In this document: positions 6,791 through 11,671 of the stretch, piece by piece | Layout of the letters: the number at the start of each line of letters is the position of its first letter | Position numbering within the stretch: position 1 is the stretch's first letter | Assembly (NCBI GenBank): GCA_051892935.1 | Contig: JBJFGS010000014.1 | Location: 1-25,881 of the forward strand | Length of the DNA stretch: 25,881 bases | DNA from: Candidatus Coprovivens sp. | GTDB taxonomy: Bacteria > Bacillota_I > Bacilli_A > RF39 > UBA660 | Reading direction: 5' to 3' | Translations under genes and position numbers: made by a program | The notes under the pieces: model-generated | Databases searched by the model: none | Told to the model about the DNA's origin: nothing | Seen by the model: the letters and a program-made list of their open reading frames with translations, nothing else

Positions 6791-7363
6791 GTGATTAATG
6801 TGCAATATCCAAATAACATCCAAAAAAACTATACGAAATTAACAATATCACATAGTAATCGTGGAATGAACTTAGAAAATGCACTTAATATAAGTAACGA
6901 ATATTACTTACAGCAAGACAAAGCCTTAATATATAAAAAGCCTACTCCGATAGGTGTGGTAGACGTTTCTTATAAAAATCACAAAAAAATAATAGAAAAA
7001 GCTTATTTTAAAGAACAATCAACCTTAGATTATAATGGATTATATCGTGGTAAATATATTGAATTCGATGCTAAAGAAACTCAAAATAAAACAGCTTTCC
7101 CACTATCGAACATTCATGAACATCAAACAAAACAAATAAGAGACGTTATAAAACATGGTGGAATAGTCTTTTTAATAATAAGAATGAATAATATAAACTA
7201 TCTCCTAACTGGAGAAGATTACATTTACTTCATTGACAATACAACAAGAAAATCTATTGATTATTCCTATATACAAAAAAAAGCTCATATAATAAAAGAA
7301 AGCTATCGACCACAATTAGACTATTTAAAAACTATTGATGAAATATACTTTAAAGGAGAATAA
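6791..7363 (+). CDS. recU: Holliday junction resolvase RecU
   Basis: YPN...NRGMNLE, KKPTP, STLDYNGLYRGKYIEFDAKET and NIHEHQ motifs; upstream of ponA. The true start may be GTG 6800 (RBS AGGTGA). Confidence 0.96.
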   Translation: MINVQYPNNIQKNYTKLTISHSNRGMNLENALNISNEYYLQQDKALIYKKPTPIGVVDVSYKNHKKIIEKAYFKEQSTLDYNGLYRGKYIEFDAKETQNKTAFPLSNIHEHQTKQIRDVIKHGGIVFLIIRMNNINYLLTGEDYIYFIDNTTRKSIDYSYIQKKAHIIKESYRPQLDYLKTIDEIYFKGE

Positions 7364-7366
7364 AAA

Positions 7367-10081
7367 ATGGAAATAAAAAAAATAAATTCCAACAAAAAAG
7401 GAACATCATCCAATGCTTTAACAACAAAAAGTAAGAATAATAACCAAAAGAAATCTAATAGCATATTAGAAATTAAAAAAAATAATAAAGCAACTAATAA
7501 GCCACAAAATAATAAACCTGTTACTTTAGTAAAACAAACAAAAACAAAAAATAAAAAGAAAAAAAGTAATAGTGGCAAAATCATAAACTTTGTATTATCG
7601 ATGATAATGCTTCTATGTATTGCAGCTATGATTTGTATAATAGCATTCTGTGGATATATAGTTCTATCTGCTCCCGCTTTCGAAACAGATAAACTATATA
7701 GTCAAGAAGCAACAATATTCTATGATAAAAATGGTAATGAATTTGCCCGTGTTGGTGCAGAACAAAGAGATTTAGTATACTATGAAGACTTACCACAAGT
7801 ACTAGTAGATGCTATAGTAGCAACAGAAGATTCTCGTTACTTCCAACATAACGGATTCGATGTAGTCAGATTCATAAAGGCTGCTCTTGGTCAAGTAGCA
7901 GGACAATCAGGTGCTGGTGGTGCATCAACTCTAACAATGCAAGTTGCCAAAAATACTTTCTCAGTAGCCGAAGATGGTACAATAGCAGCTAGTGGATTTG
8001 CCGGTATAGTAAGAAAATTTACAGACATATATATAAGTATTTTCTTGATAGAAAAAAATTATACAAAAGAAGAAATAATGGAATTCTATGTTAATGCTCC
8101 ATTCCTAGGACAACAAACATATGGTGTTGAACAAGCTTCACAAAAATACTTTGGAAAATCTGTTAGAGATTTATCATTAGCAGAAGCTTCTTTACTAGCA
8201 GGTATTTTTAATGCTCCATCATCTTACAACCCATTCTTTAGTACAGAATTAGCAGAACAAAGACGTTCAATAGTATTAAACCTAATGGTTAGACATGAAT
8301 ATATAACAAAAGAACAAGCAGAAGATGCTAAAGCAATCAGCGTTGAATCACTAATAGTAGAACCAACAGCCACAGAACTAAACAAATATCAATCATTCAT
8401 CGATATTGTATGTGATGATATATATGAACAATTCCATATGGACCCATATGCTGTACCAATGGAAATATATACAACAATGGATCCAGATATTCAAGATATT
8501 ATGGTAAAACTTAATAACGGTGAACTAAACTACAAATGGAAAACATATAAAGCAACTAATAATAAAGACATCATTCAAATAGGAGCAATAGTAACAGATG
8601 TTAAAGATGGTTCAATTGCTGCTGTTAATGGTGGCCGTCATCAAAATACTCAAAAAGCTTTCAATAGAGCAACAGATATGAAAACACAACCTGGTTCTAC
8701 CGCAAAACCTATATTTGCTTATGGTCCATATTTAGAATACAATAACGGAAATACAGGAACAGTATTCTACGATAATAAAATGACTTATTCAAATGGACAA
8801 GAACTTACAAATGCAGATAAAACATATAAAGGTGCTATGACAATGCGTCAAGCTCTTGCTCAATCAAGAAACATTCCTGCAGTACAAGCTTTCCAAGCTG
8901 TTAGTAAAACAAAAGTTTCAGAATTTGTTAACAATTTAGGAATAGACTACTGCATATATGATTCAAATGGAAATCCAAAAGATTGTAACCTTTATGAATC
9001 TTATGCAATAGGTGGTGGACTTGAAGTAAGTCCAGAAGAAATGGCTGGTGCTTATGGAACATTTGCTAGAGGTGGCTATTATATAGAACCATATTCATAT
9101 ACAAAAGTAATATTCCGTGAAACAGATGAAACATACGAACACAAATATGAAAAAGTACAAGCTATGAGCGAAGAAACTGCATATATGATTACAGATATGC
9201 TAATAACAGCTACAAAACAAGGCGTTGGTGGAAACATAAACGTAAGTGGTACTGAAGTAGCATCTAAAACAGGAACATCAACACATAGTAAAAAAGGAGT
9301 TCCAGATAGCGCATCAAAAGATAACTGGGTTATCACATATTCACCAGATTATGTTATATCATTCTGGTATGGAACAGATTACCTAACATCAACTGAATAT
9401 ACAACTGCCCTAGCAGCGGCTAAAGAAAGAAAACTAATATCTGCTCAACTCGCTAATAACATATACAAGAAGAATTCAACATTCAAAAAACCGAGCGGAA
9501 TAATATCTGCTAAATATGAAAAAGAAACATATCCAGCCCAACTTCCATCGGAATATACACCTTCGAATCTAATATCAACAGAGCTTTTTAAGAAGGGGAC
9601 AGAGCCAAGTGAGATATCAGATAGATTCAGTCAATTAAATAATCCAACAAATGGAAAAGTAGAAATAAGTAATAGTCAAATAAATCTAAGCTGGAACGAA
9701 ATAAATACACCAAGTGCTATAAACACATCATATCTTCAAGGATTCTTCAGTGAAAACTATGGCCAATTTGCAACAACATATTATAATAAGAGAATTGAAT
9801 ACAATAATAGTAATATCGGAACAATTGGATACCAAATATATTTGCAAACAGATAGCGGTCTTCAATCATTAGGTTTTACAACCAATCCATATTATGTATA
9901 CAATGCAACTACATCAGGTACATATACATTTGTAATAAAAAGTTCTTATAGCATATTTAAAAACAATGCAAGTTCAGGAATAACATTAACAGCAGACGTC
10001 ACTTCAGGTTCAGTACCTTCACTTCCAAATAGTGGTGATAATACTGAAAATAATCCTGAAAACGTGGAGGTCGCCCCGTAA
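7367..10081 (+). CDS. ponA: Class A penicillin-binding protein PBP1A (transglycosylase, transpeptidase, FN3-like domain)
   Basis: Lys-rich cytoplasmic tail, TM helix, TG motifs EDSRYFQHNG and GASTLTMQ, TP motifs STAK, SRN and KTG; recU-ponA operon. Confidence 0.95.
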   Translation: MEIKKINSNKKGTSSNALTTKSKNNNQKKSNSILEIKKNNKATNKPQNNKPVTLVKQTKTKNKKKKSNSGKIINFVLSMIMLLCIAAMICIIAFCGYIVLSAPAFETDKLYSQEATIFYDKNGNEFARVGAEQRDLVYYEDLPQVLVDAIVATEDSRYFQHNGFDVVRFIKAALGQVAGQSGAGGASTLTMQVAKNTFSVAEDGTIAASGFAGIVRKFTDIYISIFLIEKNYTKEEIMEFYVNAPFLGQQTYGVEQASQKYFGKSVRDLSLAEASLLAGIFNAPSSYNPFFSTELAEQRRSIVLNLMVRHEYITKEQAEDAKAISVESLIVEPTATELNKYQSFIDIVCDDIYEQFHMDPYAVPMEIYTTMDPDIQDIMVKLNNGELNYKWKTYKATNNKDIIQIGAIVTDVKDGSIAAVNGGRHQNTQKAFNRATDMKTQPGSTAKPIFAYGPYLEYNNGNTGTVFYDNKMTYSNGQELTNADKTYKGAMTMRQALAQSRNIPAVQAFQAVSKTKVSEFVNNLGIDYCIYDSNGNPKDCNLYESYAIGGGLEVSPEEMAGAYGTFARGGYYIEPYSYTKVIFRETDETYEHKYEKVQAMSEETAYMITDMLITATKQGVGGNINVSGTEVASKTGTSTHSKKGVPDSASKDNWVITYSPDYVISFWYGTDYLTSTEYTTALAAAKERKLISAQLANNIYKKNSTFKKPSGIISAKYEKETYPAQLPSEYTPSNLISTELFKKGTEPSEISDRFSQLNNPTNGKVEISNSQINLSWNEINTPSAINTSYLQGFFSENYGQFATTYYNKRIEYNNSNIGTIGYQIYLQTDSGLQSLGFTTNPYYVYNATTSGTYTFVIKSSYSIFKNNASSGITLTADVTSGSVPSLPNSGDNTENNPENVEVAP

Positions 10082-10350
10082 CACCTAGTACAATTTGCAT
10101 AAACGGACAAAAAGGAAAGATTAATACAAAAACACTATTTAATCCAATAGTATATGCTGATAACCAAGACATTACAAATAAAACAACAATCAAATATTCA
10201 CCAACAATTATTTCTTTAGAAAAAACAAGTACATACACAATCAACATTAGTACAACATATAAAAATAAATATGCATTCACAAATGCAACTATATATGTAT
10301 GTAGTGGTGACTACAAATGTAATACAAGCGGAAATGGCTGTACAAAATAA
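10078..10350 (+). other. Start-less 90-codon frame (-1 relative to ponA) encoding an Ig-like, Cys-containing domain; probable C-terminal extension of PBP1A
   Basis: The frame is open from 10060 to TAA 10348-10350, with no ATG/GTG/TTG. It reads VTPSTICINGQKGKINTKTLFNPIVYADNQDITNKTTIKYSPTIISLEKTSTYTINISTTYKNKYAFTNATIYVCSGDYKCNTSGNGCTK and ends in the terminator hairpin. Confidence 0.7.
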
Positions 10351-10376
10351 GGAACTATTTAGTTTCTTATTTTTTT
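10344..10376 (+). terminator. Intrinsic terminator of the recU-ponA unit
   Basis: AAAATAAGGAACT-attt-AGTTTCTTATTTT plus T-run. It overlaps the stop of the extension frame, not the ponA stop. Confidence 0.75.
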
Positions 10377-10378
10377 GC

Positions 10379-10402
10379 AAAAAAAAGATTAAATCTTTTT
10401 TT
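10379..10402 (-). terminator. Intrinsic terminator of nth
   Basis: AAAAAAGAT-tta-ATCTTTTTT hairpin containing the nth stop codon; A/T-rich. Confidence 0.5.
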
Positions 10403-11012
10403 CCTTACTAGTACAGTCATCATAAAAAGCACAATTCATACATTCAGGTCCTCTCGCCTTACAAATATATCTTCCAAATAAAACCAACTGGTGATGACTT
10501 CTACTCCATAATTCTTTAGGTATTATCTTCATTAATTTTTTTTCGACAACCAATACAGAATCTCCTTTTCGAGCAATCTTAAGCCTTTTACTAACTCTTT
10601 CAACATGCGTATCTACAGCAATACATGGAACATCAAATAAATTAGACAATACAACATTTGCAGTCTTTCTTCCTACTCCAGGTAAATTCTCCAAATACTC
10701 TCTATCATTAGGAACAACACCATTATAATTATCAACTAAAGATTTAGCTATTTCTATAATATAAGATGATTTCTTTGTATAAGAACCACAACTTCTTATA
10801 ATTCGTTCAATATCCTTCTTATCAGCCTGCGCAAGACCATATACATCATAATTACTAAACAATATTTTAGTAACCTCATTCACTCTTTTATCAGTACATT
10901 GAGCAGATAAAACAGTAGCAATAAGTAACTCATAATCTCGATTATAATTAAGCTCACATCTCGCATCAGGAATCATCTTATCTAATTTTTTATTAAAATC
11001 TACTATCATCAT
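10389..11012 (-). CDS. nth: Endonuclease III
   Basis: LSAQCTDKRVN, HhH motif LPGVGRKTANVV, VDTHV, [4Fe-4S] motif CKARGPECMNCAFYDDC; dnaD-nth synteny. Confidence 0.97.
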   Translation of the reverse strand: MMIVDFNKKLDKMIPDARCELNYNRDYELLIATVLSAQCTDKRVNEVTKILFSNYDVYGLAQADKKDIERIIRSCGSYTKKSSYIIEIAKSLVDNYNGVVPNDREYLENLPGVGRKTANVVLSNLFDVPCIAVDTHVERVSKRLKIARKGDSVLVVEKKLMKIIPKELWSRSHHQLVLFGRYICKARGPECMNCAFYDDCTSKEKKI

Positions 11013-11671
11013 TGATTATTCAACCAATCAAAATCAACTATTTCTTGTTCCTTTTTACTAATAACCTTATCTTTAGATTTATCATCTCTTCTGCTCATCA
11101 TATAATTACTAACATCATCCATCGATTTAAAGCCTTTACGCTCCCACTCATAAATTATTTTATCAATATACCTAAAATTACTCACACCATTATAAACAGC
11201 TTCTCTAAGAGCTCCTAAAATGATATCTTCAGAAGTCCCACTAATCAACCAACCATTAATTAATTCCAATTCCATAGGTGACATAGTTCGACCTAACTCT
11301 TTTTCAAAAGACTTAAAAATATCAACTTTAATATCTTCATTAGTTTCAACCTCAGTATTTTCAATAACAGAGGCATAAACACCATCAAGCCTTACAACCT
11401 CATTAAGTCTATTTTCAACATCTTTAACACTCTCTAAAGTAACTAATCCTTTAACCATCAAACTATTAAACGCTTCCATTGCTAAATTAACATCAATACC
11501 TAAAGTACTACTAATTAAATCAACATCAAATACATTACTAAAACTATTATCATAATAAACTAGTACTAAGAATTCTATTAAATTCAAATTATTACTTAAA
11601 GCAACCTTAATTAAATACTCACTTATTACTAACTTCTTAGAATTTAATACCTTATATAACTGCTCCTTCAT
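11009..11671 (-). CDS. dnaD: Replication initiation protein DnaD
   Basis: FEKELGRTMSPMELELINGW...ALREAV...NFRYIDKIIYEW DnaB_2 motif; located upstream of nth. Confidence 0.92.
   Translation of the reverse strand: MKEQLYKVLNSKKLVISEYLIKVALSNNLNLIEFLVLVYYDNSFSNVFDVDLISSTLGIDVNLAMEAFNSLMVKGLVTLESVKDVENRLNEVVRLDGVYASVIENTEVETNEDIKVDIFKSFEKELGRTMSPMELELINGWLISGTSEDIILGALREAVYNGVSNFRYIDKIIYEWERKGFKSMDDVSNYMMSRRDDKSKDKVISKKEQEIVDFDWLNNQ

Follow-up and report, generated by a model that had tools for sequence, protein, structure and literature searches.

Programmed ribosomal frameshifting in bacterial chromosomal genes outside mobile elements is, to our knowledge, limited to few cases, namely prfB, dnaX, cdd, copA and a handful more. 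Here, we analyzed a stretch of 25,881 nucleotides from Candidatus Coprovivens sp., an uncultured gut bacterium (assembly GCA_051892935.1, contig JBJFGS010000014.1, positions 1 to 25,881, forward strand; referred to in its full length as the window), in which ponA, which encodes PBP1A, a penicillin-binding protein (PBP) of class A, is followed in the -1 frame by an open frame, termed the tail, that would extend the protein by an Ig-like domain. Judged from sequence comparison, the tail is a well-supported candidate for programmed -1 recoding, of an unusual kind and in a core cell-wall gene. The closest described system is Escherichia coli dnaX (tau/gamma), which, like ponA, is a chromosomal, non-mobile gene; its -1 shift, like the one proposed for ponA, lies downstream of an internal Shine-Dalgarno (SD)-like sequence and gives two isoforms from one gene. 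However, the dnaX site comprises the heptamer A_AAA_AAG with a hairpin downstream and an SD located 10 nt upstream, the stimulation being lost at 7 nt (bioRxiv 2020.04.16.045807), whereas ponA has neither a heptamer nor a conserved hairpin. Moreover, the ponA SD-like sequence lies 5 nt from the last sense codon, the shift would take place at a stop codon, and the protein would be lengthened rather than shortened. The +1 site of prfB (SD, short spacer, CUU UGA C) shares with ponA an SD near a sense codon, followed by a stop and a C, and there the P-site tRNA slips during slow reading of the stop, as proposed here for ponA. Yet prfB shifts in the +1 direction with its SD less than 4 nt from the P codon (same source), whereas the ponA tail lies in the -1 frame with a spacing of 5 nt, and the ponA site does not qualify as a prfB-type +1 cassette.

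Two further systems share single features with ponA. Bacillus subtilis cdd, with a -1 shift at CGA AAG, is likewise a chromosomal gene of a Firmicute that shifts near the end of its open reading frame (ORF), although the shift codons differ; it reportedly relies on an SD-like stimulator and is said to be lengthened by no more than a short stretch, which forms no folded domain. In tailed phages, Ig-like domains are added to a fraction of the structural proteins by a frame change near the stop; these are phage genes, whereas ponA, part of a recU-ponA operon, encodes a core cell-wall synthase. By analogy, the ponA site appears to act most like dnaX and also resembles prfB, while showing the defining features of neither. 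The parallel with the SD elements of dnaX and prfB drawn in a first-pass annotation of the window is therefore doubtful, as the ponA spacing matches neither. A literature search retrieved no precedent for a frameshift in a PBP and, among the matches listed, no paper on this kind of site. The terms "ribosomal frameshifting" and "class A penicillin-binding" never occurred together in one paper, and "penicillin" was absent from the accessible text of the frameshift surveys PMC3711429 and PMC5009743, whose supplements lay outside the search.

Pfam searches of the ponA product identified the Transgly (PF00912, E = 1.3e-50) and Transpeptidase (PF00905, E = 1.9e-34) domains, as expected of a class A PBP. 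The gene ends in AAC GTG GAG GTC GCC CCG TAA, which places GGAGGT at 10066-10071, CCCC at 10074-10077 and the stop codon at 10079-10081. All six sense codons end in G or C, and each is rare in this genome, accounting for 3.6-15.6% of its synonymous set (CCG, 3.8% of Pro; GCC, 6.9% of Ala; GAG, 11.5% of Glu; GTC and GTG, 3.6% and 3.9% of Val). At a genomic G+C content of 26.5%, 17-mers with at least 12 G or C letters number 676 of 1,811,207 (0.037%), and the string GGAGG-N3-CCC-N-GTAA occurs a single time in the genome. The GC-rich site at the end of ponA is far from chance expectation. The -1 frame is open from stop to stop over 10060-10347 (96 codons), closes with TAA at 10348-10350 and translates as KRGGRPVTPSTIC...GNGCTK, with four Cys. 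ATG, GTG and TTG are absent from the tail frame in each of the three species that possess it (the window and the genus members G004 and G019), and reading in the +1 frame meets a stop after 3 codons both in the window and in G004.

RNA folding revealed no hairpin at the ponA stop, where the segment 10060-10110 folds worse than its shuffled versions (z +1.9). A hairpin at 10344-10373, followed by a T run, is stable (-12.3 kcal/mol, z -6.2, equaled by 0 of 200 shuffles), although a consensus terminator scan, which needs three G-C pairs, does not list it. With this one caveat on the terminator, re-reading of the sequence agreed with the first-pass annotation, which had described the ponA ending with its GGAGGT and CCCC, the start-less -1 frame at 10060-10350 with four Cys, a terminator overlapping the tail TAA and none at the ponA stop. 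The coordinates of the features are collected in Table 1.

Table 1. Features of the ponA locus in the window, with their coordinates and the basis of each assignment
Feature	Position	Strand	Basis and remarks
ponA zero-frame ORF	7367..10081	+	ORF list, translation; class A PBP, 904 aa; downstream of recU
Candidate recoding cassette TGGAGG-NN-GCCC-N-GTAA-NN-CCTA	10065..10087	+	DNA alignment of window, G004 and G019; X4 retains it with 3 substitutions
SD-like GGAGG inside ponA	10066..10070	+	Invariant in 4 of 4 DNA sequences
Proposed shift site GCC CCG TAA	10073..10081	+	Inferred from CC-CNG-TAA conservation and the short frame overlap
-1 frame tail, 90 aa (VTPSTIC...GNGCTK) plus TAA	10078..10350	+	Translation, dN/dS, AlphaFold2, hhalign; Ig-like, four Cys
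Terminator-like hairpin plus T run	10344..10376	+	RNA fold; overlaps the tail stop codon

Comparison of 27 genomes of the genus, in which the window's own genome is labeled G000, identified the tail in three, namely G000, G004 (68% identity) and G019 (39%); all genomes compared here are metagenome assemblies. The first-pass annotation had suggested dN/dS on the downstream frame and a structure or profile analysis of the 90 residues as checks, and both came out in favor of a genuine domain. The dN/dS ratio is 0.19 for G000 against G004 and 0.33-0.37 against G019, at dS values of 1.2-1.7, which are saturated. Differences at codon positions 1, 2 and 3 number 22, 15 and 40, the other two frames of the tail region contain 4-15 stops, and shuffling left the tail frame open in only 5-16 of 20000 cases (5 of 20000 for the 91-codon frame of the window). 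These comparisons indicate that the tail is a real domain under purifying selection. An AlphaFold2 model built with nine tail sequences is all-beta and forms a beta sandwich with a pLDDT of 91 and a pTM of 0.77. With this model as the query, Foldseek matches were only weak and for the most part to Ig-like modules (best E 0.024, TM 0.52). Neither a signal peptide nor a membrane anchor is present in the tail.

Direct profile searches of the 96-aa tail frame with hmmscan returned no Pfam family up to E 1, so that the PF16403 threshold was not reached; relatives with the domain in frame nevertheless exist. PBP C-termini were found in 26 of the 27 genus genomes. In four members (G011, G021, G016 and G041), the PBP measures 969-978 aa and includes a four-Cys tail encoded in frame; three members carry the frameshifted tail, the PBPs of 18 end in an acidic or Pro-rich linker, and that of G014 is cut by the contig end. 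A hairpin and T run, judged by eye, come directly after the stop in many of the genes that end in a linker, whereas in the window the hairpin follows the tail. When the frameshifted tails were aligned by hhalign to the in-frame tails of the four genus members, the probability was 80% (E 1.4e-5), with all four Cys aligned. The 120 best relatives of the PBP C-terminus include six proteins, 930-937 aa long, that possess an in-frame tail ending in ...INVCNSC..NGTC, to which hhalign gave 93% (E 2.4e-7), and PF16403 is on record for three of these six. In addition, the PBP1A of G328, from another genus of the same family, carries an in-frame PF16403 domain (Pfam E 1.6e-15), to which the tail aligned with 77% (E 2e-5). 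Taken at the profile level, and together with the predicted beta sandwich, these alignments indicate that the frameshifted tail is homologous to the in-frame, PF16403-type Ig-like C-terminal domain of PBP1A.

The PBP1A proteins with an in-frame PF16403 (Bact_surface_Ig-like) domain thus share with the window the enzyme, a homologous end domain and the Cys pattern VC..C...G.C. They are encoded in one frame and measure 930-978 aa, whereas in the window the domain lies in the -1 frame behind a stop. The junction reads T-V-P-T-I-S-I-N-N-G in the in-frame clade and P-V-T-P-S-T-I-C-I-N-G in the -1 frame of the frameshifted species; the N-V-E of the linker is encoded in the in-frame clade via GTT GAA. 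Searching proteins of 173-2000 aa with the tail profile returned none at E <=0.001, which is weak evidence. A class-wide search of 400 genomes yielded two matches beyond G000, namely the distant in-frame G328 domain and an ORF in G055; the latter, presumably HPr-like, was judged a chance match. Other PBP1A relatives (P0047, P0105, P0107, P0110 and P0123) carry differing in-frame C-terminal add-ons, a Cys-rich repeat, DEGYTYDESTNSC, in P0047 and Ig-like tails ending in ...NSCS in others. The C-terminus of PBP1A is a hot spot at which domains are gained and lost.

Structural homology aside, the frame break itself is conserved. The PBP ends in ...VEVAQ* in G004 and ...LEGAQ* in G019, and in both the tail follows in the -1 frame, with stop-to-stop frames of 100-101 codons. 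Since the zero and -1 frames overlap by just 5-10 codons, a shift between them must fall within the cassette. DNA alignment of the window, G004 and G019 revealed that the block TGGAGG-NN-GCCC-N-GTAAC-N-CCTA is kept while the adjoining linker has diverged. The pattern GGAGGNNGCCCNGTAAC, searched with at most one mismatch, occurs once each in G000, G004 and G019 and in none of the other 24 genus genomes, and its reversed control matched nowhere in the 27. The conservation in relatives that the first-pass annotation had proposed to check holds for the break, GGAGG, GCCC and GTAA and fails for the run of four Cs, as the last sense codon before TAA is CCG in the window and CAG (giving CCCA) in G004 and G019. 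Sequencing runs provided a further strain: the 27-kb contig of run X4 spans 9700-10420 with 26 substitutions and a sole indel at 10378. Three of these substitutions, to T at 10072 and 10082 and to C at 10083, fall in the cassette, which reads GGAGGTTGCCCCGTAATCCCT and retains GGAGG, the C run and TAA. Contigs of run X1, possibly the source sample, and of run X20, an RNA library (10073-10261), are indel-free at the site, within the limits of a contig comparison that is blind to rare variants; the X2 contig ends at 10066, before the shift site, and is uninformative.

The PBP tree places G019 as the sister (100/100) of a group formed by G020 and the in-frame clade, while G000 and G004 group with the tail-less G006 across the midpoint root. 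As these are separate branches, the cassette has been kept in two separate lineages. The PBP gene of G006 (L016) ends in GAT GCA GAA CTA GCT CAA TAA, preserving the E-x-A-Q-stop residues in AT-rich codons, and GGAGG, CCC and the G before TAA are all gone, with unrelated sequence 3' of the stop. Because G006 keeps the residues but not the nucleotides, the third-position letters of the cassette appear to be kept only where a tail follows. G006 can be regarded as a natural control for a recoding signal.

At the protein level, 16 of the 120 best PBP clusters end in [VLM]-E-[VGA]-[AST]-[PQL] (VEVAQ, VEVSP, VEVSQ, MEVTQ, VEATQ, LEGAQ or LEGAL), the clusters of G004 and G019 among them; all are 870-918 aa long and none is fused to the domain. 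All 16 ends would be compatible with NTG GAG GNN NCC CNG, a fit deduced from the protein ends alone. Metagenome scans with tail patterns returned no relatives, and scans with the cassette pattern returned 41 stretches, mostly G+C-rich and from other habitats, none of which encodes a tail or PBP by tblastn. A scan of the window's genome for a long ORF followed by a start-less open frame of at least 70 codons returned ponA and one other locus only (C18:821). At that locus, around position 821 of contig C18, a gene ends in ...TAC AAA AAG TAA and an 85-codon, start-less -1 frame lies behind a terminator; this frame is probably non-coding and antisense to an opposite-strand gene.

As expected of a frameshifted gene, the downstream -1 ORF overlaps the upstream ORF and lacks its own start codon in all three tail frames, the break and the site nucleotides are conserved in three species and one strain, and the downstream frame is under selection. 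We count the conserved break, the conserved nucleotides, the selection on the tail and its homology to in-frame domains as observations, and these support the proposal of the first-pass annotation that programmed recoding appends an Ig-like, Cys-containing domain to PBP1A. On this comparative evidence we consider it fairly probable that ponA is a recoded gene, in which a fraction of the ribosomes performs a -1 shift within the cassette to give isoforms of 904 and 994 aa. The ribosomal nature of the shift, its exact codon, its efficiency and the role of GGAGG are what we infer beyond these observations. In the proposed mechanism, the majority of ribosomes would terminate at UAA (10079) and release the 904-aa PBP1A, while the remainder would slip back one base within UGGAGG-NN-NCC-CNG-UAA and continue in the -1 frame, thereby appending the 90-aa, four-Cys, PF16403-type domain to yield 994 aa with the junction ...EVAP-VTPSTIC.... 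Waiting at the slowly read UAA, the peptidyl-tRNA that occupies the rare CNG codon (Pro-UGG for CCG in the window; Gln-UUG for CAG in the relatives) would re-pair one base upstream on CCN, with G36 pairing with the conserved C. After the slip, tRNA-Pro would also pair at the middle position, and tRNA-Gln at the third and not the middle, and GUA (Val; 10078-10080) would become the next A-site codon. For each of Pro(UGG), Gln(UUG), Ala(UGC) and Val(UAC), the genome contains a single tRNA gene. A C following the stop and a C-terminal Pro are known to slow termination.

Alternatively, the shift might occur one codon earlier, with CCN read as Pro, which would explain why this codon varies synonymously (CCC or CCA) in the -1 frame while the zero-frame residue varies. 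Slips on still earlier codons (GAG, GTC/GGG and GCC) offered no re-pairing common to the three species. The first-pass annotation had also entertained a hop from CCG to CCT (10084), which is unworkable where the last codon is CAG, as G004 and G019 have no CAA or CAG landing codon in the tail frame; a GCC-to-GCC hop in these two species would land in the +1 frame.

Several observations weigh against a -1 slip of this kind. The canonical X_XXY_YYZ heptamer is absent from the ponA site. The C_CCG of the window is a Z_ZZN tetramer, whereas C_CAG in G004 and G019 is not, so that the only pair common to all is G36:C, and re-pairing of tRNA-Gln from CAG to CCA entails a mismatch at the middle position. 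In E. coli, C_CCG supported frameshifting merely 1.8-3.6 fold over background even with a pseudoknot (PMC4066793). Counted from the GGAGG, NCC lies at 2 nt, CNG at 5 nt and GUA at 7 nt. An SD in E. coli stimulates -1 shifts at 10-14 nt, loses this effect at 7 nt and favors +1 shifts below 4 nt (bioRxiv 2020.04.16.045807), and the 5 nt between GGAGG and CNG fall outside the stimulatory range. The 7 nt between GGAGG and GUA, present in all three species, equal the modal GGAGG-to-ATG spacing of the genome (7 nt in 43 of 162 cases; 6-8 nt in 105 of 162). No conserved downstream RNA structure was detected, the consensus fold reaching -1.8 kcal/mol and single folds z-scores of -1.2 to 0; the sole recurring pairing near the site, a 3-4 bp AGG(U):(A)CCU helix, is too weak to count. 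The usual stimulators are missing at ponA, which has neither an SD placed 10-14 nt upstream nor a hairpin or pseudoknot downstream. Finally, the DNA-level evidence comprises four sequences, all from metagenome assemblies. No 16S 3' end, which would carry the anti-SD, turned up in this assembly. The -1 slip is weakest as an explanation of GGAGG, and the ponA signal fits no known rules. A bolder proposal, which we put forward only tentatively, is that ponA displays a new bacterial signal, in which GGAGG at initiation-like spacing together with NCC-CNG-UAA may drive ribosomes into the -1 frame at a stop codon, with neither a slippery heptamer nor a downstream structure, and may set the ratio of short to long, Ig-domain-bearing PBP1A.

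The same spacing lends some weight to the strongest competing explanation, that the tail is a separate small protein. In that case, GGAGG would hold the ribosome after UAA, and translation would re-initiate at GUA, within G-UAA, or at a downstream AUU or AUA. A GGAGG that lies 7 nt from GUA in three species, at the modal spacing to ATG, suits initiation (4-9 nt) and not dnaX-type stimulation; the cassette region is unstructured, and gene callers report tail pieces as ORFs of 63-85 aa. Six such short ORFs in the protein collection proved to be tail pieces that start at chance start codons, and ATG, GTG or TTG is found in 0 of the 3 tail frames. Nor is any rare start conserved (the first ATT in G019 is at codon 27), and we know of no case in which GUA serves as an initiator. 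A separately made tail would have no signal peptide or anchor, yet its homologues are extracellular and stand in frame at the C-terminus of PBP1A, and re-initiation leaves both the CC-C before GUA and the synonymously varying Pro codon CCN unexplained. We therefore regard re-initiation as unlikely.

Even less probable, in our view, is slippage of RNA polymerase on the C run, by which a fraction of the transcripts would be in frame. Such slippage would yield the identical fusion protein, and no part of the cassette is more conserved than the short C run (CCCC or CCC); however, the run measures only 3-4 nt, whereas known slippage runs are much longer and mostly of A or T. The X20 contig from the RNA library has the genomic C4 and no indel, a weak argument given that rare variants are dropped and the library may contain DNA. 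Polymerase slippage would also leave GGAGG and the conserved G-UAA unexplained.

That the tail is a dead, unexpressed remnant left by a 1-bp deletion is very improbable, even though most PBPs of the genus are tail-less (19 of the 26 found), and the domain is hence dispensable, and in-frame forms occur in relatives. A dN/dS of 0.19-0.37, albeit at saturated dS, and 91-98 stop-free codons in three species at 26.5% G+C are not those of a decaying sequence. The identical break and cassette are found on two separate branches, recent transfer of one sequence between them is excluded by the tail identities of 39-68%, and the cassette has decayed in G006, where the tail is truly lost. The first-pass annotation had listed a fixed 1-bp deletion, phase variation and an assembly error as alternatives; a recent deletion and the latter two are unlikely because the C4 run is not conserved and relatives have CAG. 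That the break stems from faulty assembly or sequencing, or from C4/C5 phase variation, is scarcely credible: one added C would indeed yield a clean fusion and all genomes are metagenome assemblies, but the break is common to three species and one strain with differing letters (CCCCG or CCCAG), CCC-A is too short for slipped-strand variation, and the X1, X4 and X20 contigs have no indel between 10073 and 10234.

Under the bolder proposal, in which the shift would depend on slow reading of the stop and of a rare codon, the make-up of the cell-wall synthase could track the translational state of the cell. The signal departs from the spacing rules of E. coli and could reveal another use of SD-anti-SD pairing in elongation or termination. 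Furthermore, annotation pipelines overlook the domain or call its pieces as hypothetical small proteins.

Upstream in ponA, the PBP1A N-terminus (window 7367-7600) comprises about 75 cytoplasmic residues, very rich in Lys, Asn and Ser, ahead of the membrane anchor. The genes are arranged as recU-ponA, facing nth and a dnaD-like gene (recU at 6791-7363, nth at 10389-11012 and the dnaD-like gene at 11009-11671), which we take to be the same arrangement of recU-ponA, nth and dnaD-like genes as in Bacillus subtilis. Back to back with the tail hairpin stands a second, A/T hairpin on the minus strand (window 10375-10412, -6.7 kcal/mol), which probably serves as the nth terminator. Elsewhere in the genome, on contig C13 (15946-16019, minus strand), ARAGORN reports a tRNA-like gene, "tRNA-?(Leu|Phe)(aa)", whose anticodon loop has 6 bases and whose acceptor stem has 8 pairs, with mismatches. 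It may be an unusual tRNA or a false call, and its two-base "anticodon" AA has no match to the ponA site.

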